Source: Candidatus Limnocylindrales bacterium
GTDB lineage: Bacteria; Chloroflexota; Limnocylindria; Limnocylindrales; CSP1-4
NCBI GenBank assembly: GCA_038327765.1
Contig: JBBQLI010000001.1
Span: 54,072-118,071, forward strand
Direction: 5' to 3'
Length of the DNA: 64,000 nucleotides
Shown: piece by piece, positions 8,763-55,861 of the stretch
Position numbering within the stretch: the stretch's first letter is position 1
How the letters are laid out: each line of letters starts with the position of its first letter
Program-made: the position numbers and the translations under genes
Notes under the pieces: model-generated
Databases searched by the model: none
Seen by the model: the letters and a program-made list of their open reading frames with translations, nothing else
Told to the model about the DNA's origin: nothing

Positions 8763-10031
8763 GTGCCTGAACGCGATCCTGCCCGCCGTGCCGTCCTGAC
8801 CGGGCTCGGTGCCGTCATGCCCATCGGCAACGACTTCCCGACCTACTGGTCGAACCTGGTCGCGGGGGTCACGGGCACACGCCTGATCACGAGCTTCGAC
8901 GCCTCCGCGCACGAGGTGAAGATCGCGGCCGAGGTGCTGGACTTCGATCCGACCACGGTCATGGACGCCAAGATGGCCCGGAGGATGAGCCGCTTCATCC
9001 ATCTCGCGATGGGCGCCGGCAAGGAGGCCGTGCGCGACTCCGGCATCGACTTCGCGGCGATGGACCAGGACCAGCGCGACCGCGTGGGCGTGGTCGTGAA
9101 CACGGGCGGCGGCGGCATCGAGGCCATCATCGACGGCACCCACATCCAGGACACCAAGGGTCCGCGCTTCGTCAGCCCGTTCGCCGTCCCGGCCCTCTCG
9201 GGTTCGATGGCGGCATGCATGCTCTCCATGGAGTACGGCCTGACCGGCCCCGTGATCACCCAGGTGGCCGCCTGCGCGACGTCGGTCATCGCGTTCCACG
9301 ACGCGCTGCGGCTCATCAGGACCGGCGAATGCGACGTGGTCCTGACCGGCGGCTCCGAGGCACCGATCGTGCCCATGGGCATCGCCGCGCTCGGCAACAT
9401 GACGGCGCTCTCGAAGCGGAACGACGACCCGGCGACCGCCTCGCGGCCGTTCGACCTGACGCGCGACGGGTTCGTGCTCGGCGAAGGTGCCGGCGTGGTC
9501 GTCGTGGAGTCGCTGGCCCATGCGCAGGAGCGCGGCGCGACGATCCTGGCCGAGATCCTCGGCGGCGCGCTGACCGCCGATGCATTCCACATCAGCGCCC
9601 CGGATCCGTCGGGCCGCGGCCAGGCCCGCGCGATGACCTCGGCACTGCGCAATGCCGAGGTCGCCCCGGACGAGATCGACTACATCGTGGCGCACGGGAC
9701 GTCGACCTCGCTCAACGACGTGACCGAGACGCGGGCGATCAAGGCCGCCTACGGCGAGCATGCCTACAAGGTGGCGATCAGCTCCCCGAAGTCGATGATC
9801 GGGCACCTCGTCGGCGCAGCCGGCATCGCCAGCGTCCTGGCGGGTGTCGGTGCGATCCGCGACCAGATCATCCCGCCGACGGCGAACCTCCATACGCCTG
9901 ACCCGGAGTGCGATCTCGACTACGTGCCGTTGACAGCGCGGGCCGCGAAGATCGAGACCGTCGCGATCGACGGGTTCGGCTTCGGCGGGCAGAACGCCGT
10001 GGCGATCTTCCGCCGGTTCACGGACGCCTGA
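8763..10031 (+). CDS. fabF: beta-ketoacyl-ACP synthase II, second paralog (KasB-like)
   Basis: 422 aa with AACATS, HGTSTSLND and GHLVGAAG motifs. Tandem to the first KAS as in kasA-kasB. Confidence 0.9.
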   Translation: MPERDPARRAVLTGLGAVMPIGNDFPTYWSNLVAGVTGTRLITSFDASAHEVKIAAEVLDFDPTTVMDAKMARRMSRFIHLAMGAGKEAVRDSGIDFAAMDQDQRDRVGVVVNTGGGGIEAIIDGTHIQDTKGPRFVSPFAVPALSGSMAACMLSMEYGLTGPVITQVAACATSVIAFHDALRLIRTGECDVVLTGGSEAPIVPMGIAALGNMTALSKRNDDPATASRPFDLTRDGFVLGEGAGVVVVESLAHAQERGATILAEILGGALTADAFHISAPDPSGRGQARAMTSALRNAEVAPDEIDYIVAHGTSTSLNDVTETRAIKAAYGEHAYKVAISSPKSMIGHLVGAAGIASVLAGVGAIRDQIIPPTANLHTPDPECDLDYVPLTARAAKIETVAIDGFGFGGQNAVAIFRRFTDA

Positions 10032-10521
10032 GCGACCGACCCTCGTACGTCTCGATCGCGGCGATGTGCGCCGCCGACAGGGCGACCGGCCGCGCCGTCG
10101 CATAGTCGTAACGAACCAGCACGGATTCGCTCAGCGCGACCAGGCCGGGCGCGGACCCGGGTAGTCCGGCGAGCAGGCGATGCTCCAGCGTGAATGACGA
10201 GCGACCGATCCGGGTCGCGCGCGTCTCGACCTCGACGATCTGGCCGTGGAACGCGGGTGCGCGATAGGTGATGCGCGCTTCGGCGAGGATGAGGCTCTCG
10301 GCACCCTCCGTCCCCGGCGCGATGGGCTCGCCCGTGACGTCGGTCCAGTACTGGATCCGAGCGATCTCGCAGTAGGTCAGGTAGACCGCGTTGTTGACGT
10401 GGCCCATCGCGTCGGTGTCTGCGAAGCGGATCGCGATCGTGACGCGATGGGGGAAGTCGCCCGCAACGTCATACGGATCGAGTCCGTCGCGAGGACGCGC
10501 GTGCGGATGCGGGTGGGTCAC
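10018..10521 (-). CDS. hotdog-fold acyl-CoA thioesterase (4HBT/YbgC-like)
   Basis: FADTDAMGHVNNAVYLTYCE motif. 14-bp convergent overlap with the KAS gene. Start chosen at GTG; the track shows TTG at 10539. Confidence 0.7.
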   Translation of the reverse strand: MTHPHPHARPRDGLDPYDVAGDFPHRVTIAIRFADTDAMGHVNNAVYLTYCEIARIQYWTDVTGEPIAPGTEGAESLILAEARITYRAPAFHGQIVEVETRATRIGRSSFTLEHRLLAGLPGSAPGLVALSESVLVRYDYATARPVALSAAHIAAIETYEGRSLRRP

Positions 10522-10531
10522 GGGACCGAGT

Positions 10532-12820
10532 CTACGCAACCCGGCGGCGGGCGCGCAGGCGCAGCGAGTTCAACAGCACCGCCACCGACGACGACGCCAT
10601 GGCCCCTGCGGCAAGGGCCGGATCCAGCCTGATCCCGAACCATGGGTAGAGCGCACCCATGGCGACCGGGATGAGCAGGACGTTGTAGGCGAACGCCCAG
10701 AACAGGTTCTGACGGATCACCCGCATCGTGGCGCGCGACAGCTCGATCGCCCGTGCCACGGCCCGCGGATCGCCCCCGACCAGCGTGACGTCCGAGGCCT
10801 CGATCGCGACATCGGCGCCGGTCCCGATGGCAACACCAAGATCGGCCTGGGCGAGGGCGGGGGCGTCATTGAGGCCGTCGCCGACCATCGCCACCCGACG
10901 TCCCGCGGCCTGCAGCCGCTCGATCAGGGCGGTCTTGTCCGCCGGTCGCGCGTCGGCGACGACGTGGTCCGCCGTGATGCCGACCGCGCGCGCGACGACG
11001 GCGGCCGTCGTCACGCCATCCCCGGTGGCAAGCCAGACCTCGATGCCCTGCGCGACCAGCGCCTCGACAGCCGCGGCCGCCTCCGTCTTGAGCGGATCGA
11101 CGATGCCGAACAGCCCGATCGCGCGGCCGTCGACCGCGACGAAGGCGACCGTGCGCCCGTCCGTGCCGGTCGCGCGAGCCGCATCCGCGAGGTCCGTGAG
11201 GTCGATCCCCCGGTCGGTCAGCCAGCGGCCGCTGCCAACCAGCACGGTCCGCTCGCGCGTCTCGTCGCTGACGACGGCCTCCACGCCGCCGCCGGCCGTC
11301 GCCGCGAACCGCGTCGCCCGATGAAAGCCCAGTTCGTCGCGATTGGCGCGGATGACGATGGCGGCGCCCAGCGGATGCTCGCTGCCGCGTTCGGCGGCCC
11401 CGGCGAGGTCCAGCAGCGTGGCGGTCGTGACGCCGTCGACCGTCGCCACGGCATCCACCCTGGGCCGACCCAGCGTGAGCGTACCGGTCTTGTCGAGGAC
11501 GACCGTGTCGATGCGGTGGGCGATCTCGAGGGCCTCCCCTCCGCGGATGAGGATGCCGCTCTCCGCCCCGCGTCCGGTCCCCACCATGATCGCGGTGGGT
11601 GTCGCCAGACCCATGGCGCACGGACAGGCGATCACGAGGACCGCGATCGCGGCGACAAGGCCGTGTGTCAGGCGCGGCTCCGGTCCGAGCACCAGCCACG
11701 CCACGAGCGTCACGGCGGCCACGGCCAGGACCACCGGCACGAACACCTCGGCGATGCGGTCCGCCAGCCGCGCGATGGGCGCCTTCGACCCCTGGGCACG
11801 CTGGACGAGTGCCACGATCCGGGCGAGGGCCGTGTCGCGCCCGACCCGGGTCGCGCGCATGACGAAGGTCCCGGTCGTGTTCATGGTGGCGCCGATGACC
11901 TCGTCGCCGGGTCCCTTGACCGCCGGCAACGGCTCGCCGGTAAGGAGTGCCTCATCGACCGCGGAGGACCCCTCGATCACGACGCCGTCGACCGGGACCT
12001 TGTCGCCTGGCCGGACGCGCAGGAGGTCCCCGACGACGATGGCGTCGAGCGAGACCTCCATCTCCTCGTCGCCGACGACGCGCCGCGCCGAGGTGGCACC
12101 GAGCGCCGCGAGTCGCCGGATCGCCCCGGTGGTCCGGGACTTGGCGCGGTGTTCGAGGTAGCGTCCCAACAGGACCAGACCGATGATCAGGGTGGAGCTG
12201 TCGAAGTACGTGACGGGCTCAAGACCGGCCTCGCTGACGAGGTGCGGCGCCAGCGTGATCACCACGCTGTACCCCCAGGCCGCGGTCGTGCCGATGGTCA
12301 CGAGGGTATCCATCGTGCTGGTGCGGTGGCGCGCCGCGCGCCAGGTCGAGCGGTAGAACCGCCGACCGGCCCAAGCCTGGACGATCGTCGCCGGCATGAT
12401 GACCAGGAGGTTGCGCGACTCCATCGCAAACCCGGCGATGGGGAGGGCCATGACGGCCATGATCCCGGCCGCCACCACGATCGAGACGACGGATCTGACG
12501 AGGATCGCGCGGGCCTCGCGGTCGCGCGTGGCGTCCTCGCCGGACAGCTCCTCAAGGACCGTCTGGCGGGCGGCGCCCGAGGCCGGCGGAGCCGAGCGCA
12601 CGTCGTAGCCGGCCGCTTCGACCGCACCGACGAGCGCGGCTCGGTCGGTGGTCTCGGCCAGGTAGTGGATGGTTGCCTGCTCGGTCGCGAGATTGACGGT
12701 CGCGTCGACCACGCCCGGGGTCTTGCGCAAGAACCGTTCGATCCGGTTCACGCACGACGCGCAGGTCATCCCTTCGATGGGAAGGACGGCTTCGCTGGGT
12801 GTGGGCACGCTGGTCATCAT
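10532..12820 (-). CDS. copA: copper-translocating P1B-type ATPase
   Basis: N-terminal [15 protein letters not shown] domain, CPC, DKTGTLT, HP, and GDGxND motifs. The ATGATG start at 12820 gives 763 aa. The track's upstream extension is Arg/Pro low-complexity. Confidence 0.9.
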
Positions 12821-45464: not shown

Positions 45465-46514
45465 CTAGGTCCCGGGGTCGCCGCGCTCCTGCGCGAGTCG
45501 TTCGGCCAGGCGCTGCTCTCGGATCCGGATCTCGGCGAGCTGGACCGCAGCCCGGCGGTCGTTCCGTCCGGAGTCGCGTTCCTCGGACCGGAACCAGCCG
45601 CGGACCACGAGCATGATCGAGGCGATGAAGATCACGTCGCCCACGATCCACATGAGTCCGGCAGCGAGCCGCTGATCATCGAGCGGCGAGAGACCCCATG
45701 ACCGCACCACCGTCGCGTAGTGCACGTACAGCACGCTCTCGACGTTGATCATGACGAACGCGAGGAACGTGTTCTGGGTCATCTGCATGAAGATGTGGAC
45801 GGCCCGGACCGGGTGGGCCATCCGCCAGGGCGACGGATCAAGTGCGATGGCCGGCCACCAGAACAGGAGCGCAGCGGTCAGGAACAGGGCGTGTTCCAGA
45901 TCGTGGAGGAACGGGTCCTCGAGGGTGGCGTTGAACAGGGGCGAGAAATGCGCGGCCCACAGGACCGCCGCCAGGAAGAGCCAGCCCACCACCGGGAATG
46001 ACAGCACGCGCATCACGCGCGAGTGGAGGACGGGCAGGATCCAGTGCTGACGCGTCTGATGCGAGGCGACGCGCAGCAGCAGCGTCACGGGTGCTGACAG
46101 CGCGATCAGCGGTGCGGCGACCAGGATCAGCAGGATGTGCTGGACCATATGCACCGAGAACAGGGTCGTGTCATAGCGGTCGATGCCGGACATCAGGGCG
46201 ATCGCGATGGCGACCTGTCCGCCCACGAAGGTCCACGTCCGGCGCGGCGGGACGGGGTGATCAGGGTGGACCGCGTTCACCCGTCGGACCGCCCAACGCC
46301 ACCACAGGAGGGCGGCCACGATCCCGAGCGTCGGGAATGGTTCGAACGACCAGCCGAACAGCAGGTTCAGGACGGTCGGTGGATCCAGCGGACCGATCGA
46401 CGGCGCGGTCGCCGAGGCGGCCGCCACCGACCCGGCACCGGCCACGAGGCGGAGCGCGGCCAGACCGCCGATGAGCAGGGGGACGGGGGCCGGACGAGCG
46501 CGCATCGGCGGCAT
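45465..46514 (-). CDS. ctaG: cytochrome c oxidase assembly factor CtaG (Caa3_CtaG family) membrane protein
   Basis: Polytopic protein with conserved His-containing helices (HMVQHILL, HDLEHALF). Divergent from ctaC. Confidence 0.7.
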   Translation of the reverse strand: MPPMRARPAPVPLLIGGLAALRLVAGAGSVAAASATAPSIGPLDPPTVLNLLFGWSFEPFPTLGIVAALLWWRWAVRRVNAVHPDHPVPPRRTWTFVGGQVAIAIALMSGIDRYDTTLFSVHMVQHILLILVAAPLIALSAPVTLLLRVASHQTRQHWILPVLHSRVMRVLSFPVVGWLFLAAVLWAAHFSPLFNATLEDPFLHDLEHALFLTAALLFWWPAIALDPSPWRMAHPVRAVHIFMQMTQNTFLAFVMINVESVLYVHYATVVRSWGLSPLDDQRLAAGLMWIVGDVIFIASIMLVVRGWFRSEERDSGRNDRRAAVQLAEIRIREQRLAERLAQERGDPGT

Positions 46515-46704: not shown

Positions 46705-47901
46705 ATGTCGAGCACCCAAGGCGCCCGCCGCTCCGGCTCCACCGCGCTCGTGGTGGTGCTCGTCCTCGCCGTGGTCGGAGTGGTCCTGGCCATCGTCACG
46801 GGCGCCGGCGCACGGGTCGTCGAGAGCCTCTACCCGCCGGTCGCGGTCACGACCCAGGGCGCGGAGATCCGCAACCTCTACACCATCGTCTTCATCATCG
46901 CCGTCGCGATCTTCTTCCTCGTCGAAGGACTGATCGTGTGGACCGTCATCCGTTATCGCCGCCAGCCCGGCGACGACACGCTGCCGCCCCAGATCCACGG
47001 CAACAACATCGCCGAGGTCACCTGGACCGTCGTGCCCACGCTCATCGTCGCGTTCCTGTTCGTGATCTCGTGGCAGACGCTCAATAGCGTCGACGCCACC
47101 ACCACGACGCCCGACACGAAGATCCGCGCGGTCGCGGGGCAGTTCCAGTGGACGTTCGACTACATGCCCGCCAACTACGACCCCGACACGGCCGCTGGCA
47201 AGGACATCGCGCCCCTGTTCACGCAGTACTCCCCCATCGGTGCGGATGGCGGCCTTGACGTCCCGACCGGGCGCACCATCCAGCTTTACCTGACCAGCCC
47301 CGACGTGATCCACGCGTTCTACGTCCCGCAGTTCCTGTTCAAGCGCGACGTCGTGCCGGGTCGGGTCAACCGCTTCGATTTCAATGTCGACGAGAGCTAT
47401 GCCGGGGGGACGTTCCGGGGGCAGTGCGCGGAACTGTGCGGGACCGGGCATCGCCTGATGCTGTTCGAGGTCCACGCCCTGAAGGGGCCCGACTTCGATG
47501 CGTGGCTCGCCAAGCAGGTCGCTGCTGCGGTCGCCACCCCGGCGCCATCCGCCTCCGCGGGTCCGCCGGCCTCTCCCGGCGCCAGCGGCCAGGTCCCGAG
47601 CGGCGCGCCGGCCGCGGGCACGGAGCTGCACATCTCGGCGACCAACATCGCGTTCGATCAGACGGCGCTCAGCGCGCCGGCGAACAGCCCGATCACCATC
47701 GACTTCGAGAACAAGGACGCGGGGACCCCGCACGACATCAAGATCTTCAAGGACAGCATCGGCGGTACTGTCGTGTATGACGGCAAGATCTTTCCCGGTG
47801 TCGCCACCCAGCAGTACCTGGTCGGCCCGTTGGCGGCCGGGACCTATCCCTTCGAGTGCTTCGTCCATCCGAACATGACCGGCACGTTGACGGTCCAGTA
47901 A
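46705..47901 (+). CDS. ctaC: cytochrome c oxidase subunit II with a C-terminal fused type-1 copper (cupredoxin) domain
   Basis: Two TM helices, then the CuA site (H...CAELCGTGHRLM). A Pro/Ala/Ser linker follows. A roughly 95-aa domain carries PHD, then FECFVHPNMTG (His-Cys-His-Met). Confidence 0.85.
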   Translation: MSSTQGARRSGSTALVVVLVLAVVGVVLAIVTGAGARVVESLYPPVAVTTQGAEIRNLYTIVFIIAVAIFFLVEGLIVWTVIRYRRQPGDDTLPPQIHGNNIAEVTWTVVPTLIVAFLFVISWQTLNSVDATTTTPDTKIRAVAGQFQWTFDYMPANYDPDTAAGKDIAPLFTQYSPIGADGGLDVPTGRTIQLYLTSPDVIHAFYVPQFLFKRDVVPGRVNRFDFNVDESYAGGTFRGQCAELCGTGHRLMLFEVHALKGPDFDAWLAKQVAAAVATPAPSASAGPPASPGASGQVPSGAPAAGTELHISATNIAFDQTALSAPANSPITIDFENKDAGTPHDIKIFKDSIGGTVVYDGKIFPGVATQQYLVGPLAAGTYPFECFVHPNMTGTLTVQ

Positions 47902-47909
47902 GGAGCCCG

Positions 47910-49538
47910 ATGGCAACGACCACGTTGACGCCGGCAGCCACGTCGTACCGCAGCGGCCTGTACGACTGGATCACCACGACCGATCACAAGAAGATCGGGA
48001 TCCTGTACATCATCAACTCGTTCCTGTTCTTTTTCATCGGCGGCACGCTGGCGCTCGGTGTCCGGACGGAACTGGCCCAGCCCGGTCTGCAGTTCCTGAC
48101 CGAGGCGGGCTACAACGAAGCCTTCACGATGCACGCCACGTTCATGATCTTCCTGTTCGTGATCCCGATGCTGGCGGGCTTCGGCAACTACATCGTGCCG
48201 CTCCAGATCGGCGCACCGGACATGGCCTTCCCGCGCATCAACGCCCTGTCGCTGTGGATGCTCCCGCTGGCCGGGGTCCTGCTGCTGTCGGGCTTCTTCA
48301 CGGGTGGGACCGCGGCGGCCGGCTGGACCAGCTACAGCCCGCTGGCCCAGGACAGACCGTTGGCGGCGGTCGGCTCGGGCGAGGACCTGTGGATCGTGGC
48401 CATCATCCTGATCGGGACCAGCTCGATCCTTGGCGCGATCAACTTCCTGGTCACGATCTTCAAGATGCGCGCCCCGGGGATGACCCTCTTCCGGATGCCG
48501 ATCATGGTCTGGACCGTGCTCGTCACCTCGGTCCTGGTGCTCATGGCCACGCCGGTCATCACCAGCGCCCTGATCATGCTGTTCATCGATCGCAACTACG
48601 GCGGGTCGTTCTTCGACCCCAGGGTGGGCGGCGATCCGATCCTCTACCAGAACATCTTCTGGTTCTACTCGCACCCGGCGGTCTACGTGATGATCCTGCC
48701 CGCGATGGGCATGGTCAGCGAGATCCTGCCGGTCTTCAGCCGAAAGCCGCTATTCGGCTACAAGGCGTTCATCTTCGCGACGGCCGGCATCGGCGCCCTG
48801 GGCTTCTCGGTCTGGGCGCACCACATGTTCACGACCGGCGCGGTCTACCTGCCGTTCTTCAGTCTCATGACGTTCCTGATCGCCGTCCCCACCGGCGTGA
48901 AGATGTTCAACTGGATCTTCACGATGTGGCGCGGGCAGCTGATGCTCAAGACGCCGTTGTTGTTCGTGCTCGGGTTCCTGTCGATGTTCCTCATCGGCGG
49001 CATCAACGGCGCCTTCAGCGCCAGCGTCCCGGTCGACTTCGCCCTGCACGACACCTACTGGGTGGTCGCGCACCTGCATTACGTCCTGTTCGGCGGGTCC
49101 GTGTTCGGGATCATGGGCGGCTTCTACTACTGGTTCCCCAAGATGACCGGCCGCATGCTCAATGAGACCGTCGGCAAGATCCAGTTCGTGCTGATGTTCA
49201 TCGGGTTCAACCTGACGTTCTTCCCGATGCATGAGCTGGGCCTGGCCGGCATGCCGCGTCGCATCGCCGACTACGCCTCGGCCGCGGGCTGGAACGACCT
49301 GAACCTCGTGGCCACGATCGGCGGCTTCACGATCGCTGCATCGATGCTGCCGCTGCTCTGGAACGTCTTTGCCTCGCTGCGCAACGGCACGATCGCCGGC
49401 GACGACCCGTGGGAGGGCAATACACTCGAATGGGCGACGAGCTCGCCGCCGCCCGCCTACAACTTCGACCACCTGCCGGAGATCCGCTCGGAGCGCCCGG
49501 TCTTCGATCTCCGTCACGGCACCACCCACGGGCACTGA
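47910..49538 (+). CDS. ctaD: cytochrome c oxidase subunit I
   Basis: 542 aa with heme-a/CuB ligands (WFFGHPEVY-like, [17 protein letters not shown]). AGGAG upstream. Confidence 0.95.
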
Positions 49539-49545
49539 GCGACCC

Positions 49546-50205
49546 ATGACGAGCGACGCGCACGCCCTCACCACCACCGTCGACCACGGCGCCGACGCTG
49601 GCGCCCACGACACTCGCGGCGGCATCAGCAACCCCGTCCTCGGGATGTTGCTGTTCATCACCTCCGAGGTGATGTTCTTCTCCGGCCTGTTCGCGGCCTA
49701 CTTCAGCGTCCGGGCCAACGCCCCGCAGTGGCCGCCCGTCAATCCGCAGACCCAGGAGCTGTTCCACGTGGACATGTTCCCGCTGGTACTGCCGGCCACG
49801 ATCCTGCTGGTGATCAGCTCCTTCACGTGCCAGTTCGCGGTCTGGGCGATCCGCCGCGACGACCGGACGGCGTTCCTCCGCAACATGACCGTCACCGTGG
49901 TCATCGGGGCGATCTTCCTGATCATGCAGGCCACGGACTATTCCATCCTCGGCTCGGAGGGCGTCACGCTCTCGTCCGGGACGTTCGGGACCACGTACTT
50001 CACGCTCACCGGGTTCCACGGCGCGCACGTCTTCGGTGGCGTGATCATGCTCTCGGTGGTGCTCTATCGCGGGCTCGCCGGCCAGTTCTCGGCGAAGCAC
50101 CACGATGCGATCGAGGCAGCCTCGCTGTACTGGCACTTCGTGGACGTGGTCTGGATCCTGCTGTTCTCGCTTCTCTACCTCCTCCCTGGCAACGCGCCGC
50201 ACTAG
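49546..50205 (+). CDS. ctaE: cytochrome c oxidase subunit III
   Basis: Five-TM CoxIII fold (TGFHGAHV). Confidence 0.9.
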
Positions 50206-50216
50206 GAGCAGTGGCC

Positions 50217-50423
50217 ATGGACGAACCCATCAAGCATCCGATCAAGAACCCGCGCCGGGTCTTCCTCATCGCGGCGGCCTTCCTGTTCATCGCGCTGGTC
50301 TTCTGGGGCGTTCCCACGCTCGGACACTGGCACGTGGACTACGCGGGGACCACGATGCTGGTCGCCCTCGCGATCGCGATGAGCCTGATGGCGTATGTGC
50401 TCATCGCCGGGTCGCGCGAGTGA
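50217..50423 (+). CDS. small 2-TM protein, probable cytochrome oxidase subunit IV-like (CtaF N-terminal-half-like)
   Basis: 68 aa with two TM helices. AGGAG upstream. Positioned as the fourth gene of the cta operon. Confidence 0.55.
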   Translation: MDEPIKHPIKNPRRVFLIAAAFLFIALVFWGVPTLGHWHVDYAGTTMLVALAIAMSLMAYVLIAGSRE

Positions 50424-50464
50424 CGGACGCGACGCGCGACGCGCGCGACTGACCCGGGCGCCCG

Positions 50465-51571
50465 ATGCTGGAGCAGATCTGGAACTGGTTCCTGGAGCAG
50501 ACCGCGCTGCTCGTGACCCCCGACTGGGGTTCGATCATCGCGCTGTTGCCGGTCGGGGTGATGGCCCTGGTCCTCGTCTGGCTGTTCCTGACCTTCCGCC
50601 GCTTCCGCGCCCAACCGCCGGCTCGTCGGGGCAAGCAGCGCATCGAACCGAGGACGCCCGCCGGGATCCACATGCCCGGACCGTCGTTCTCGCCCGTCTT
50701 CGCGGCCATCGGCGCGGCGCTGCTGCTGTTCGGCCTCGTCTACGGGGGCTGGGTCCTCGTCCTCGGCGGCATCGCACTGGTGCTGAGCCTGCTCTACTGG
50801 CTGGCTGAGGGGCTGCGCACCTACGACCGCGATACCGGATCCACCGCGCTGGCCCTCCCGGCTACGGTCCACGATGGCCCGCCGCCCGGCGTGCACATGC
50901 CGGGACCATCGTTCCGGCCGTTCGTCGGAGCCGTGGGGATGATGATCCTGATGTTCGGGCTGGTGTACGGCGGCTGGCTGCTCCTGGCCGGCGTGCTGTC
51001 CCTGGTCTTCACGCTGGTGGGCTGGCTGGTGGATGCGGTCGGGGAATACGGACAGGTCGCCAGGGCCGACACGACCGGGCACCTGGAGAACCTGCCCGCC
51101 CCGCGAACACCGTCGCTGCTGCTGAGCGTGCTGGCGGTCCTCTTCGTCGGCGGCGTCCTGCTCCAGACCGGGATCCTGCCCCCGAAGTCGGGCAGCGTCT
51201 CGGCCGTGACGCCCGGCGGGTCCGCGGCGCCATCGGGGGTGTCATCCTCGGCCAAGCCGGCCGGTTCCTCGACCCCCGCCGCGTCAGCCGCGACCGGGGA
51301 CGTCTCCATCACGGCCCAGGGCGTGGCCTTCCTCGATACGGCCGTCAGCGGCCCTGCCGGCAAGCCGTTCACGATCGCCTTCAGCAACCAGGATGCCGGA
51401 ACCGCCCACGATGTCGACATCAAGGACGCGTCCGGCGGTGACCTGTTCAAGGGCGAGATCTTCCCGGGAGTGGCGACGAAGGTCTACGCCGTGCCCGCCA
51501 TCCCCGCGGGTACCTACACGTTCGTCTGCTTCGTGCACCCGAACATGACGGGCTCGATCACGCTCAAGTAA
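50465..51571 (+). CDS. membrane protein with duplicated HMPGPSF-motif two-TM modules and a C-terminal type-1 copper (cupredoxin) domain
   Basis: IHMPGPSFSPV...LVYGGW and VHMPGPSFRPF...LVYGGW repeats. C-terminal FVCFVHPNMTGSITLK is nearly identical to the ligand loop in the ctaC fusion. Confidence 0.7.
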   Translation: MLEQIWNWFLEQTALLVTPDWGSIIALLPVGVMALVLVWLFLTFRRFRAQPPARRGKQRIEPRTPAGIHMPGPSFSPVFAAIGAALLLFGLVYGGWVLVLGGIALVLSLLYWLAEGLRTYDRDTGSTALALPATVHDGPPPGVHMPGPSFRPFVGAVGMMILMFGLVYGGWLLLAGVLSLVFTLVGWLVDAVGEYGQVARADTTGHLENLPAPRTPSLLLSVLAVLFVGGVLLQTGILPPKSGSVSAVTPGGSAAPSGVSSSAKPAGSSTPAASAATGDVSITAQGVAFLDTAVSGPAGKPFTIAFSNQDAGTAHDVDIKDASGGDLFKGEIFPGVATKVYAVPAIPAGTYTFVCFVHPNMTGSITLK

Positions 51572-51640
51572 GGGACGGTCCCAGCCACGCCGCGCCGACC
51601 GATCCTGATCGCCGTCGGACTCGCCATCGTCACGACGGCG

Positions 51641-52108
51641 GTGCTGGTGCTCATCGCCGGTGCCGCTCGTCACCCAGACACGGCACAGATCGCGGTCGGC
51701 CAGCCGGCGCCAGCGGTCGTCGGCACCACCCTCGATGGGTCGAGCGCCGACTTGTCGACGCTGCGCGGGCATCCGGTCCTCGTCAACTTCTGGGGGCCGT
51801 CGTGCGTCCCGTGCCGCCAGGAATTCCCGCTGCTGAACCAGAAGCTCCAGCAGCACGCAGCCGACGGGCTGGTCGTGCTGGGGATCCTGACCGACGACCC
51901 GGTGCAGGGTGCTCGGGACTTCACCGCGCAATTCGGCGGGACCTGGCAGACCGTCATCGACCCGGACAAGGCGATCAAGGACGCGTACCGGGTGGCGGCT
52001 CGGCCACAGAGCTACTTCATCGACGGAAGTGGCGTGTTGCGCTCGATCCAGATCGGGTACCTGACCGACGTCGACTTCGAGCGCCAGTACGCGAAGATCG
52101 CACCGTGA
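51641..52108 (+). CDS. tlpA: TlpA/ResA-like thiol-disulfide oxidoreductase
   Basis: WGPSCVPC thioredoxin motif. The in-frame upstream sequence encodes a TM anchor but has no ATG/GTG/TTG before 51641. Confidence 0.75.
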   Translation: MLVLIAGAARHPDTAQIAVGQPAPAVVGTTLDGSSADLSTLRGHPVLVNFWGPSCVPCRQEFPLLNQKLQQHAADGLVVLGILTDDPVQGARDFTAQFGGTWQTVIDPDKAIKDAYRVAARPQSYFIDGSGVLRSIQIGYLTDVDFERQYAKIAP

Positions 52109-53936: not shown

Positions 53937-54500
53937 GTGGACCAGCGACGGTACGTCGAACGGGCGCAGCAAGGCGATCATGACGCCTTCGCGGTGCTTG
54001 CCGGCGCGGCCATCGCACGCCTAGACACCGCCGCCCGGCTGATCCTCCGCGACCGCGAACTCGCACGTGATGCGGTCCAGGAGGCACTCGTCCGCGCCTG
54101 GCGTGACCTGCCCCGACTGCGTGATCCGGAACGGTTCGACGCCTGGCTCCATCGACTCACCGTGCACGCCTGCATCGATGCCGTGCGCCACCGGCGCCGC
54201 CGACCGATCGAAGTGGTACTGACCACCTTCGACCCGCCGCTGGCGCGCGACTTCGCCTCCGACATCGTCGATCGAGATCGACTCGACCGTGCGCTCCGGG
54301 CGCTCGAACCCGAATGGCGCGCGATCGTCGTCCTCCACTACTACCTGGGGATGCCGCTGCCGGACGTGGCCGGCACCCTCGGGATCCCCCTCGGCACGGC
54401 GAAGTCGCGCCTGCATCGGTCCCTCGGGTTGCTTCGCGCAGCCGTCGAGGACGACACGGGCGGCGGCACCGGATCGCTCAAGGAAGGGCAGTACGCATGA
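53937..54500 (+). CDS. ECF-type RNA polymerase sigma-70 factor
   Basis: Region 2 (DAVQEALVRAWR, FDAWLHRLTVHACID) and region 4 (LPDVAGTLGIPLGTAKSRLHR). Confidence 0.85.
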   Translation: MDQRRYVERAQQGDHDAFAVLAGAAIARLDTAARLILRDRELARDAVQEALVRAWRDLPRLRDPERFDAWLHRLTVHACIDAVRHRRRRPIEVVLTTFDPPLARDFASDIVDRDRLDRALRALEPEWRAIVVLHYYLGMPLPDVAGTLGIPLGTAKSRLHRSLGLLRAAVEDDTGGGTGSLKEGQYA

Positions 54501-55861
54501 CGCCGATCGATCGCTTCGAACGACAGCTGCCGGCCGCCCTGGCCGACCTGGGTGACGAGCGTACGCCCGACTACCTCATCGACCTCCTCGGGCGGACCGC
54601 CCGTACGCGTCAGCGGACCGCCTGGAACTCCCCAGGAAGGTGGATCGACATGCCCAGCTTCATCAGCCGGCCGGCGCTCGTCGCCTTGCTCACGGCCATC
54701 GTGGTCGTGGCGATCGGCGGCGCCATCTGGATCACGCGCCCGAACCCTGACCACCCGTCCATCGCGGGTGGGCCGACGCCAGCTCCGATCATCACCGACT
54801 CGCCGACACCAGTCTCACCGACAGCGACGCCGACCGAGGTCGTGACGTCCGTCGTCCCGGAGGCGCTCCGCTACACGTGGGTCTCAGCGCCGCGTGCGGT
54901 CGCCGGTCTCAGTCCGCGCCAGCGCTTCCGCTTCACGCTTCGCTCGTCCTCCCTGGCCTTCCCGAACGATTCGCTCACCGCCGCCGACCTTCGATCGGAT
55001 GCGTTGCTCGCCGGCGACCAGCTTGAGTTCCGTCTCCAGGATGCTGAGTCGACCTGCACGGCGGGCGCTACCGGCGCCTACCGCTACGTCCTGTCGCCGG
55101 GCGGCTTCCGGCTTCATCTCGACCCGGTCGGGACCGACGCCTGCACGACCCGTTCGCTGGCGCTCAGCGGCGACTGGATCCGCGTCGCGTGCACGAACAC
55201 GCAAGACGCGTGCTTCGGCGATCTCGAGGCCGGCACGTACCCGTCGCAGTACGTCGACTTCCGTCTTGCGCCCGGTTCCGGCGACGCCTGGGCACCCGCG
55301 TACGCGGCCCTGACGTACACGGTCCCGAGTGGATGGTCGAATGACGGTGATTGGCCGTACTTGTTCAAATTGACGCCTTCGCCCGACTATTCGCTGGAAA
55401 CCGGTAGTGGACCTACCGCCACGCACGAGGTGGCGGCATACGCGCGACCGGTGGCCGCGAAGGACTGCAACGGGACCGTGGACTCGCGCTCCGCACCAAC
55501 TGTTGATGGACTGCTCAGCGCGATCACCCATCGAACGGGGATCGTCACCGGCGCGGGCGGGACCCTTGCCATTGGGAGTCGGACAGCCAGCTGGGTCGAC
55601 ATCGCGGTCGCGGATGCGTGGACCGGCACGTGCCCCGGCGACGACCGTCCCGGAGTCGTCTTCGCGACCTCCCCGCCGCTCGGGTCGGGCATCCCGGGTG
55701 CGTTGCTCGGCATCGCACGGGGCGAACGTATCCGGGTCGTCGTCCTGGACCTCGGCCGCGGGGACCTGGCCCTGATCCTCATCGATTCGACCCACCCCGA
55801 CCGCTTCGATCAGCTGGTCTCGCAGGCGATGCCGATCATCGGATCCTTCGTGTTCAAGTAG
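54497..55861 (+). CDS. putative anti-sigma factor/membrane-anchored extracytoplasmic protein
   Basis: ATGA overlap with the sigma gene. Roughly 80-aa cytoplasmic N-terminus, a single TM (ALVALLTAIVVVAIGGAIWI), and a Pro/Thr linker. Extracytoplasmic domain with six Cys. Confidence 0.55.
   Translation: MTPIDRFERQLPAALADLGDERTPDYLIDLLGRTARTRQRTAWNSPGRWIDMPSFISRPALVALLTAIVVVAIGGAIWITRPNPDHPSIAGGPTPAPIITDSPTPVSPTATPTEVVTSVVPEALRYTWVSAPRAVAGLSPRQRFRFTLRSSSLAFPNDSLTAADLRSDALLAGDQLEFRLQDAESTCTAGATGAYRYVLSPGGFRLHLDPVGTDACTTRSLALSGDWIRVACTNTQDACFGDLEAGTYPSQYVDFRLAPGSGDAWAPAYAALTYTVPSGWSNDGDWPYLFKLTPSPDYSLETGSGPTATHEVAAYARPVAAKDCNGTVDSRSAPTVDGLLSAITHRTGIVTGAGGTLAIGSRTASWVDIAVADAWTGTCPGDDRPGVVFATSPPLGSGIPGALLGIARGERIRVVVLDLGRGDLALILIDSTHPDRFDQLVSQAMPIIGSFVFK

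Follow-up and report, generated by a model that had tools for sequence, protein, structure and literature searches.

Predicted type-1 copper domains fused to two proteins of a Limnocylindrales haem-copper oxidase operon as probable tethered electron donors

The 64,000-nucleotide stretch of DNA analysed here (hereafter, the window), positions 54,072 to 118,071 of contig JBBQLI010000001.1 from a Candidatus Limnocylindrales bacterium (Chloroflexota), carries a compact plus-strand operon for a terminal oxidase, with a G+C content of ~70%, in which two genes, ctaC and one at positions 50465 to 51571, encode proteins that end in a cupredoxin domain with a candidate type-1 (blue) copper site. We consider it probable, from the sequences, structure predictions and genome comparisons set out below, that the operon specifies an A2-type haem-copper oxygen reductase that takes its electrons in through these tethered blue-copper domains and is fed by the cupredoxin of a b6-type complex III. 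An extra type-1 copper domain on both proteins had been proposed in a first-pass annotation, made from the sequence alone; its motifs and coordinates are correct, and both domains lie above the Pfam threshold. The features on which the argument turns are the following (positions in the window; pLDDT, predicted local distance difference test):

46705..47901, plus strand: ctaC, oxidase subunit II with a predicted type-1 copper cupredoxin, 398 aa (Pfam COX2_TM, COX2, Cupredoxin_1)
47536..47601, plus strand: flexible Pro/Ala/Ser-rich linker of CtaC, residues 278-299 (pLDDT <50)
47602..47898, plus strand: cupredoxin domain 1, residues 300-398 of CtaC (Pfam PF13473)
47910..49538, plus strand: ctaD, oxidase subunit I, A2-type by its motif (Pfam COX1, E 3e-163)
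49546..50205, plus strand: ctaE, oxidase subunit III (Pfam COX3, E 1e-37)
50465..51571, plus strand: duplicated CtaF (subunit IV)-like six-helix membrane protein with a predicted type-1 copper cupredoxin, 368 aa (Pfam Cyt_c_ox_IV, Cupredoxin_1)
51176..51286, plus strand: flexible Ser/Ala/Pro-rich linker of this second protein, residues 238-274 (pLDDT <50)
51287..51568, plus strand: cupredoxin domain 2, residues 275-368 of the second protein (Pfam PF13473)

CtaC matches COX2_TM at residues 44-123, COX2 at 140-256 (E 1e-16) and Cupredoxin_1 at 303-397 (39.9 bits; cut-off 27), and it scores above the cut-off of the NCBIfam CoxB equivalog TIGR02866 (166 vs 148 bits). The CuA set H...CxExCGxxHxxM is complete, and its ligands (H203, C241, E243, C245, H249 and M252) do not vary in 42 CtaC homologs of 59-89% identity; neither does W149, which we equate with the tryptophan through which electrons enter subunit II of Paracoccus. 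The linker that follows consists to 73% of Pro, Ala and Ser, is between about 9 and 36 residues long in homologs, and is disordered in the AlphaFold model of CtaC. The candidate copper ligands of domain 1 are His343 (codon at 47731-47733), in the upstream motif GTPHD, and Cys385 (47857-47859), His388 (47866-47868) and Met391 (47875-47877), in the motif FECFVHPNMTG; all four are invariant in the same 42 homologs. The PDB sequences nearest to domain 1 are auracyanin B (1ov8, E 2.5e-5), auracyanin A, the Roseiflexus auracyanin and amicyanin. When the full CtaC model was used in Foldseek, CoxB structures dominated the matches and nothing informative was obtained for the cupredoxin part; the body of the protein is structurally nearest to mycobacterial CtaC (30% identity) and to subunit II of the Thermus caa3 enzyme (2yev_B). 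The CxxCH haem motif is absent from CtaC and from every candidate open reading frame (ORF) of the window that was retained after filtering on the G+C content of third codon positions (GC3).

The gene at 50465-51571 had been listed in the first-pass annotation simply as a second gene of the operon; it does belong there, but its product is not a generic protein, being a duplicated CtaF-like membrane protein (hereafter, CtaF2). It matches Cyt_c_ox_IV (PF12270) in two stretches (47.9 vs 26.9 bits) and Cupredoxin_1 at residues 268-366 (33.8 bits; cut-off 27). In the AlphaFold model, a short N-terminal helix precedes six transmembrane helices, the modelled helices lying at residues 21-48, 76-93, 96-124, 151-168, 171-204 and 217-235. 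Both repeats, each formed by GIHMPGPSFSP and a helical hairpin, match the CtaF-like C-terminal extension of COX1 at locus L084, from an Actinomycetota metagenome-assembled genome (MAG), so that the anchor appears to be built from genuine oxidase subunit-IV modules; it is reasonable to regard CtaF2 as a putative subunit of the oxidase. Basic loops (RRFRAQPPARRGKQR and others) come after helices 1, 3 and 5, and because of the helix positions and the positive-inside rule, cupredoxin domain 2 is expected outside the membrane, on the CuA side. The linker at residues 238-274 is disordered in the model and measures about 29 to 45 residues in homologs. The candidate ligands of domain 2 are His315 (codon at 51407-51409), upstream, and Cys355 (51527-51529), His358 (51536-51538) and Met361 (51545-51547), in the motif FVCFVHPNMTG, the last three having been confirmed on the DNA at 51527-51547. 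Among 42 homologs of CtaF2, no exchange occurs at H315, C355 or M361, and the conservation of H358 is at least 90%; the second His ligand is replaced by Gln in one homolog, P0183. Another CtaF2-type homolog, P0155, carries two tandem cupredoxins.

The two checks suggested in the first-pass annotation, a search with cupredoxin hidden Markov models and a structure prediction, gave concordant results: both C-terminal domains exceed the PF13473 cut-off, and both are modelled as cupredoxin folds with pLDDT >90 (around 95 in each domain, range 90-97). The CtaF2 model, when compared with the PDB by Foldseek, found amicyanin (1id2) as its top match, followed by the auracyanins 6kol, 2aan and 1qhq and by plastocyanins, with a probability of 1.00. 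The ligand set His...Cys-x2-His-x2-Met, which had been called amicyanin/plastocyanin-like, aligns ligand for ligand with that of amicyanin: AGTPHD pairs with A-MPHN, AGTYPFECFVHPNMTG pairs with AGTYDYHCTPHPFMRG, and the candidate ligands fall on His53, Cys92, His95 and Met98, the four ligands of amicyanin, with an identical Cys-x2-His-x2-Met spacing. The score against the amicyanin equivalog TIGR02657 is nevertheless far below its cut-off (16.4 vs 110.2 bits), and neither of the two window proteins matches the sulfocyanin (SoxE) model PF06525 at E <= 0.01. The motif H(M)X10MX21HXM, given for the PCuAC copper chaperones (PMC9145763), is absent from the sequence of domain 1, which has a single Met. 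Without the PCuAC motif, far below the amicyanin cut-off and without a SoxE match, both domains are best described, as judged from sequence and model, as type-1 cupredoxins that form a subfamily of their own, and both would be expected to bind copper.

The domains had also been described as near-identical, which overstates their likeness: they are 54% identical over 98 residues, and near-identity is confined to the ligand loop. The cupredoxins of the two proteins form two classes, with an identity of 55-58% within a class and 48% between classes, and for only two of 137 domains is the nearest neighbour found in the opposite class. The classes thus appear to be ancient paralogs, both maintained since before the clade diversified, and this separation argues for selection on both domains.

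The subunits point to an A-family haem-copper oxygen reductase, for which COX1, COX3 and a complete CuA set are all present, with a subunit I that appears to be of the A2 type. CtaD scores above the cut-off of TIGR02891 (710 vs 671 bits); its start is the ATG at 47910, inside an ORF that opens at 47856. At residue 251 it has the motif WFYSHPAVY, and we take YSHP, in which Tyr-Ser of helix VI replaces the GHPEV glutamate of the A1 enzymes, to be the mark of the A2 subfamily (in the classification of Pereira and Sousa). The caa3 enzyme of Thermus is also in A2. With an A2-type motif in subunit I, the label 'aa3-type' given to the operon at first is not established: the haem type is not readable from the window sequence and 'aa3' is an unproven assumption. 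The actinobacterial models were missed by both subunits (aa3_CtaC_Actin NF050117, 198 vs 250 bits; cyt_aa3_Actin NF050116, 718 vs 880 bits), and, where a caa3 oxidase would have a cytochrome c with CxxCH at the C-terminus of subunit II, Cupredoxin_1 is found instead.

The fusions are common in the Limnocylindria lineage. Protein clusters related to CtaC number 2965, the best 120 of which all combine COX2 with Cupredoxin_1, and 1178 clusters are related to CtaF2; among species-representative genomes, 584 loci matched, and the best 80, to which the counts given hereafter refer, all reach the last cupredoxin residue. The CuA and type-1 motifs occur together in 80 of 81 CtaC proteins (those of the window and of the 80 loci), the exception being cut by a contig end, a second type-1 gene is present in 57 of the 58 loci with enough downstream DNA, and the upstream His of the type-1 set is present in all domains across these loci. 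The recurring neighbours are genes for a DksA-like protein, a pyridoxal phosphate (PLP) enzyme, CtaG, CtaC, CtaD, CtaE, a small ORF, CtaF2 with its cupredoxin, a redoxin and an ABC transporter, and the order is that of the window wherever positions were listed. All named sources are uncultured MAGs (Candidatus Limnocylindrales or Limnocylindria, Chloroflexota, 'uncultured Chloroflexia'), with a few evidently mislabelled bins. Database labels for the proteins are 'cytochrome c oxidase subunit II', 'plastocyanin', 'aa3-type cytochrome oxidase subunit IV' and 'cupredoxin domain-containing protein'. On one 76-kb contig (JBCLDE010000003.1; L022 and L024), the oxidase operon occurs twice, inverted, about 10 kb apart and with identical ORF layouts; this may reflect a genuine inverted duplication or else a chimera that arose in assembly or amplification.

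When the cupredoxin domain by itself was searched against the full library, 2582 representative proteins were retrieved. In the top-scoring relatives, two to four tandem cupredoxins come after a hydrophobic N-terminal region of ~100 residues, which we read as about three helices. Where such genes could be seen in context (L081, L083 and L084, all Actinomycetota MAGs), they encode proteins with two or three tandem type-1 cupredoxins and close caa3-type cox operons, behind CtaG; directly downstream comes a TlpA-like redoxin gene in L081 and L084 and a gene for a fused CtaA-CtaB haem A synthase in L083. In L084, the clearest case, the order is CcdA, ResB, ResC, CoxB::cytochrome c (with the haem motif CIGCH), COX1::CtaF, COX3, COX4_pro, CtaG, a tri-cupredoxin protein (10001-11329) and a redoxin. 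From the CoxB::cytochrome c of L084 and from the match of CtaC to the Thermus caa3 subunit (2yev_B), the cupredoxin on the Limnocylindria subunit II appears to sit in the place of the caa3 cytochrome c, and cupredoxins attached to cox operons seem to be a wider theme in these single-membrane phyla. Also among the relatives are proteins in which as many as four or five cupredoxins stand in tandem (P0252 and P0254), a Ser/Thr protein kinase that bears a related cupredoxin (P0330) and a lipoprotein-like protein with an unannotated N-terminal region of ~430 residues and, by reading, a possible lipobox. In L084, the cytochrome c maturation genes and the caa3 operon are immediately preceded by genes for a cytochrome b and a 4Fe-4S ferredoxin-like protein and by a 121-residue ORF (L084:1-1468), which may form an unusual quinol-oxidising module.

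A likely partner for the oxidase was found at a separate place in the genome of a relative. A search with the tandem-cupredoxin protein retrieved ~360-residue proteins in which a cytochrome c domain is combined with a C-terminal cupredoxin; these have one transmembrane helix, a single CxxCH (CARCH or CAQCH), a Pro/Ala/Ser linker and a cupredoxin with PH...C-x2-H-x2-M. Their genes belong to a bc operon (20 contigs, L085-L104), the order of which, read wherever the contig extends far enough (for example, L103:1694-6337), is cytochrome b6-like, subunit IV-like (Cytochrom_B_C), Rieske and cytochrome c::cupredoxin, in agreement with a Pfam scan. A gene for a Kelch-repeat protein of ~485 residues follows wherever the contig extends that far; in L089, L103 and L104, a long ORF lies upstream, its end overlapping the start of the cytochrome b gene, and in L103 it encodes a Pyr_redox_2 + 4Fe-4S protein. 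One assembly holds both the bc operon (L090, JANONZ010000200.1) and the fused oxidase operon (L046, JANONZ010000224.1). The bc-linked cupredoxins are 55-69% identical to the nearest oxidase-linked domains, which in the case of P0469 is the CtaF2 domain of the same MAG, and G+C is 68-69% in both the bc and the oxidase loci. At least one member of the clade thus has a complex III in which the c-type subunit bears, at its C-terminus, a third cupredoxin of this family.

The first-pass annotation had hinted at a lack of c-type cytochromes, and we too had suspected an organism free of cytochrome c: no GC3-filtered candidate ORF of the window has CxxCH, and the loci around the operon in the 80 genomes hold no Rieske motif and no homolog of the cytochrome b, ResB, ResC or CcdA of L084. 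We rejected this idea, since the assembly of L046 encodes the bc operon with its cytochrome c::cupredoxin subunit and the lineage is therefore not free of cytochrome c.

The oxidase genes are accompanied in the window by three further features:

45465..46514, minus strand: CtaG-type oxidase assembly factor (Caa3_CtaG), divergent from the operon (Pfam PF09678, E 5e-67)
50211..50423, plus strand: small ORF of 70 codons with two hydrophobic stretches, conserved among related loci
51587..52108, plus strand: membrane-anchored TlpA/ResA-like thiol:disulfide oxidoreductase (redoxin; Pfam AhpC-TSA, Redoxin)

A CtaG homolog was found in 79 of the 80 related loci, on the opposite strand and at the same position in 12/12 loci with listed coordinates. 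The small ORF gave no family match in Pfam and NCBIfam searches; it is conserved in 58 of the 80 loci, with a median identity of 52%, and lies between ctaE and the second cupredoxin gene where positions were listed. It may be an unrecognised small oxidase subunit. The redoxin gene, present in 57 of the 80 loci, has ResA as its top NCBIfam match, under the cut-off, and comes directly after the TAA of the CtaF2 gene, in the same frame (window 51569-51660). Its earliest canonical start would be the GTG at 51641, which falls within the predicted membrane anchor; the window has ACG at 51587-51589, as have 16 relatives, at a position that ATG occupies in 13 relatives (M-PRRPIL...). Twelve of the relatives with a non-canonical codon have neither ATG, GTG nor TTG upstream in the ORF, and a purine-rich AAGGGA lies ~10 nt upstream of the ACG. 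The start of the redoxin is probably this ACG at 51587, and its translation may depend either on an ACG start codon or on reinitiation. The genes that flank the operon are non-respiratory and encode a zinc finger of the DksA type, a PLP enzyme, ABC transporters and a sigma factor of the extracytoplasmic function (ECF) type. The ECF-type sigma factor gene, at 53937-54500, is followed by an ORF of 455-515 residues without a Pfam match (region 53937-55861), perhaps its anti-sigma partner.

The data show the domain architecture, the conservation of the ligands and of the fusions across the clade, the fold as predicted, and the presence of the bc operon beside the oxidase operon in one MAG; of the chain as a whole, we infer copper binding, the redox potentials, the direction and order of electron transfer, the topology and the formation of a supercomplex. 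In the reading that we prefer, quinol would be oxidised by the b6-type Rieske/cytochrome b complex, the Rieske FeS centre would reduce the haem c domain of the membrane-anchored monohaem c-subunit, and this in turn would reduce the type-1 copper (T1Cu) of the subunit's own cupredoxin. The T1Cu of complex III would then pass electrons, one at a time, to one or both of the oxidase cupredoxins, and from there they would move to CuA, the low-spin haem and the haem-CuB binuclear site. The two paralogous oxidase cupredoxins would stand on the outer face of the membrane, cupredoxin 1 on a flexible linker of ~20 residues from the CuA domain of subunit II and cupredoxin 2 on a linker of ~35 residues from the six-helix protein made of two CtaF-like hairpins. 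All carriers would thus be tethered, on flexible linkers of about 10-45 residues, an arrangement that would suit a cell that has no outer membrane to retain soluble carriers, and copper would replace most of the haem c in the chain. The proposal of the first-pass annotation that the blue-copper domain is hard-wired as the electron donor fits the position of the caa3 cytochrome c, the ligands and the fold; the donor function itself is what we propose on those grounds. We hold as more doubtful, though possible, the wider proposition that the whole high-potential respiration of the Limnocylindria runs through a covalently tethered blue-copper wire. In it, the b6-type complex III, with its c-subunit of haem c and cupredoxin, would dock with the A2 oxidase and its two cupredoxins as an obligate III-IV supercomplex, and the three type-1 coppers would do the work for which the Actinobacteria use a dihaem cytochrome cc and the caa3 enzymes a cytochrome c domain.

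Several observations weigh against this preferred reading. The co-occurrence of the bc and oxidase operons comes from one binned MAG, and the bc operon is absent from the 64-kb window, where a tblastn search with the operon and its neighbours matched only the two cupredoxin domains. All three kinds of cupredoxin are acidic (mean net charge about -5 in both oxidase-linked classes, -1 to -8 in the bc-linked domains), so there is no electrostatic complementarity between them and no support for the direct docking of one cupredoxin on another. The inter-domain geometry of the models is not reliable, and the membrane part of the CtaF2 model is of moderate confidence (pLDDT 50-80). It is equally possible that the two oxidase cupredoxins are used in parallel and not serially.

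A serious variant of our explanation, though we think it unlikely, is that the two cupredoxins are separate entry ports, one for the bc complex and the other for a different dehydrogenase of the periplasmic face. There is precedent for such a role, as amicyanin serves methylamine dehydrogenase. The long distinctness of the two classes speaks for this variant, as does the acidity of both domains, which makes their mutual docking unlikely, and related cupredoxins are indeed fused to many other proteins (the lipoprotein-like protein, the kinase, the tandem arrays). However, neither the window nor any of the 80 related loci, the flanks of which hold conserved housekeeping genes, encodes a candidate dehydrogenase next to the operon, and the only partner found with the same domain family is the bc complex. 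That the domains would be copper chaperones or stores, loading CuA and CuB during assembly, we regard as quite improbable. The assembly genes for CtaG and the TlpA/ResA-like redoxin do flank the operon, and cupredoxin-fold copper carriers such as PCuAC, CopC and CupA are on record (PMC9145763, PMC4059628), but the ligands are the classical His2-Cys-Met type-1 set with amicyanin spacing and no PCuAC motif, the nearest structures are all electron carriers, and a permanent fusion to two different mature subunits across 80 genomes would be unneeded for such a task.

It is very improbable that the outward-facing cupredoxins collect electrons from external Fe(II), Cu(I) or Mn(II) in the manner of rusticyanin or sulfocyanin. 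A single-membrane cell would expose the domains to the outside, and blue copper proteins wired to terminal oxidases act in this way in Acidithiobacillus and Ferroplasma (PMC3750248, PMC4059628). Against it, neither a SoxE match in Pfam nor a rusticyanin-like match was found in the Pfam, PDB sequence and Foldseek searches, reports place the lineage in ordinary soils, lakes and groundwater and not at acidic iron-rich sites, and a dedicated bc complex bears the same domain. Hardly credible at all is a view of the domains as structural remnants that no longer bind copper: the Gln of P0183 would agree with it, but in all sets the four ligands are invariant or at least 90% conserved, whereas identity in the sequence around them has fallen to 50-60%.

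The oxidase combines traits of several known systems. Like the caa3 oxidases (Thermus thermophilus 2YEV, Bacillus, Rhodothermus), it is an apparent A-family enzyme (A2 in Thermus) in which subunit II bears a putative donor as a C-terminal domain after CuA; it differs in that the fused domain is a predicted type-1 copper cupredoxin and not haem c, CtaC having no CxxCH, and in that a second such domain, for which the caa3 oxidases have no counterpart, is carried by a subunit-IV-like protein. The actinobacterial bcc-aa3 supercomplex (Mycobacterium, Corynebacterium) supplies the top structural and NCBIfam matches of CtaC and CtaD; a CtaF-type subunit IV (PF12270) is present in both systems, and in both, tethered domains in a single-membrane cell would dispense with a soluble carrier. 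In the actinobacterial supercomplex, the dihaem QcrC carries the electrons. Its c-subunit of complex III is thus dihaem, whereas that of the present lineage is monohaem with a cupredoxin; here, moreover, subunit I is of the A2 type, CtaF is duplicated and fused to a cupredoxin, and the NCBIfam scores lie below the actinobacterial cut-offs.

Among copper proteins, amicyanin shares the ligand spacing, aligns over its full length and is the top Foldseek match, but it is a soluble partner of methylamine dehydrogenase, and TIGR02657 does not recognise the present domains. Three-domain copper nitrite reductases carry a cupredoxin or a cytochrome c donor as an extra fused domain. They are alike in this fused-donor design, and the NirK of Thermus scotoductus (6hbe) is among the fold matches of the CtaF2 model, but the enzyme and its reaction are different. 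The auracyanins of Chloroflexus and Roseiflexus, which belong to the same broad phylum, are the nearest solved sequences (1ov8, 2aan, 6kol) and are likewise membrane-tethered type-1 copper carriers, but they are separate proteins with a longer ligand loop, whereas the present domains have the short amicyanin loop and are fused to oxidase subunits. Auracyanins work with alternative complex III and a reaction centre (PMC10873879). Blue copper proteins replace cytochrome c between Rieske/cytochrome b and the oxidase in several archaea, namely SoxM with sulfocyanin in Sulfolobus, halocyanin with a ba3 oxidase in Natronomonas, and the ammonia-oxidising and Angelarchaeales archaea (PMC3750248, PMC7300363, PMC9038741), and their genes adjoin cox and complex III genes (PMC9038741, PMC7300363). 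There the copper proteins are separate polypeptides, and no SoxE match was obtained here. AcoP of Acidithiobacillus ferrooxidans is described as a membrane-anchored cupredoxin of a single domain, which binds both cytochrome c and its oxidase and sustains the activity of the latter (PMC4059628). It differs from the present domains in being a separate protein, in its unusual site, which is green and of high potential, and in belonging to the iron-oxidation chain of an acidophile.

The sequences and domains are public, but the fused design, which is more elaborate than the first-pass annotation had recognised, seems to be undescribed: in the open-access literature, we found no description of a CoxB::cupredoxin, a CtaF::cupredoxin or a bc subunit with cytochrome c::cupredoxin; the first-pass annotation had allowed that the fusion might be common and already characterised in this lineage, and common it is, with no characterisation found in that literature. 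The only metabolic account of the lineage, the Eulabeiota preprint, names the enzyme 'cytochrome c terminal oxidase'. Two bodies of knowledge meet in the present system. To our knowledge, the built-in donors of haem-copper oxidases are known only as cytochrome c (caa3), and blue copper donors of oxidases only as separate proteins, mostly archaeal.

Here, by comparison, the cupredoxin fusions occur on two oxidase proteins and, seemingly, on complex III, in a class-level bacterial lineage that is reported to be widespread in soils and fresh waters and has no cultured member. Single-membrane bacteria retain their carriers as the fused cytochrome c of caa3, as the lipid-anchored cytochromes of Bacillus or as the dihaem QcrC. 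If our reading is correct, the tethered cupredoxins would add a third strategy of carrier retention, beside cytochromes c that are fused or lipid-anchored and the dihaem subunit of the Actinobacteria, and the oxidase would offer a natural system in which to study intramolecular electron transfer from T1Cu to CuA. The annotation 'cytochrome c oxidase' would then hide a largely copper-based chain, which would affect the copper and iron demand predicted for these organisms, and if the more tentative tethered-wire supercomplex is also true, it would represent an independent solution that economises on haem iron.

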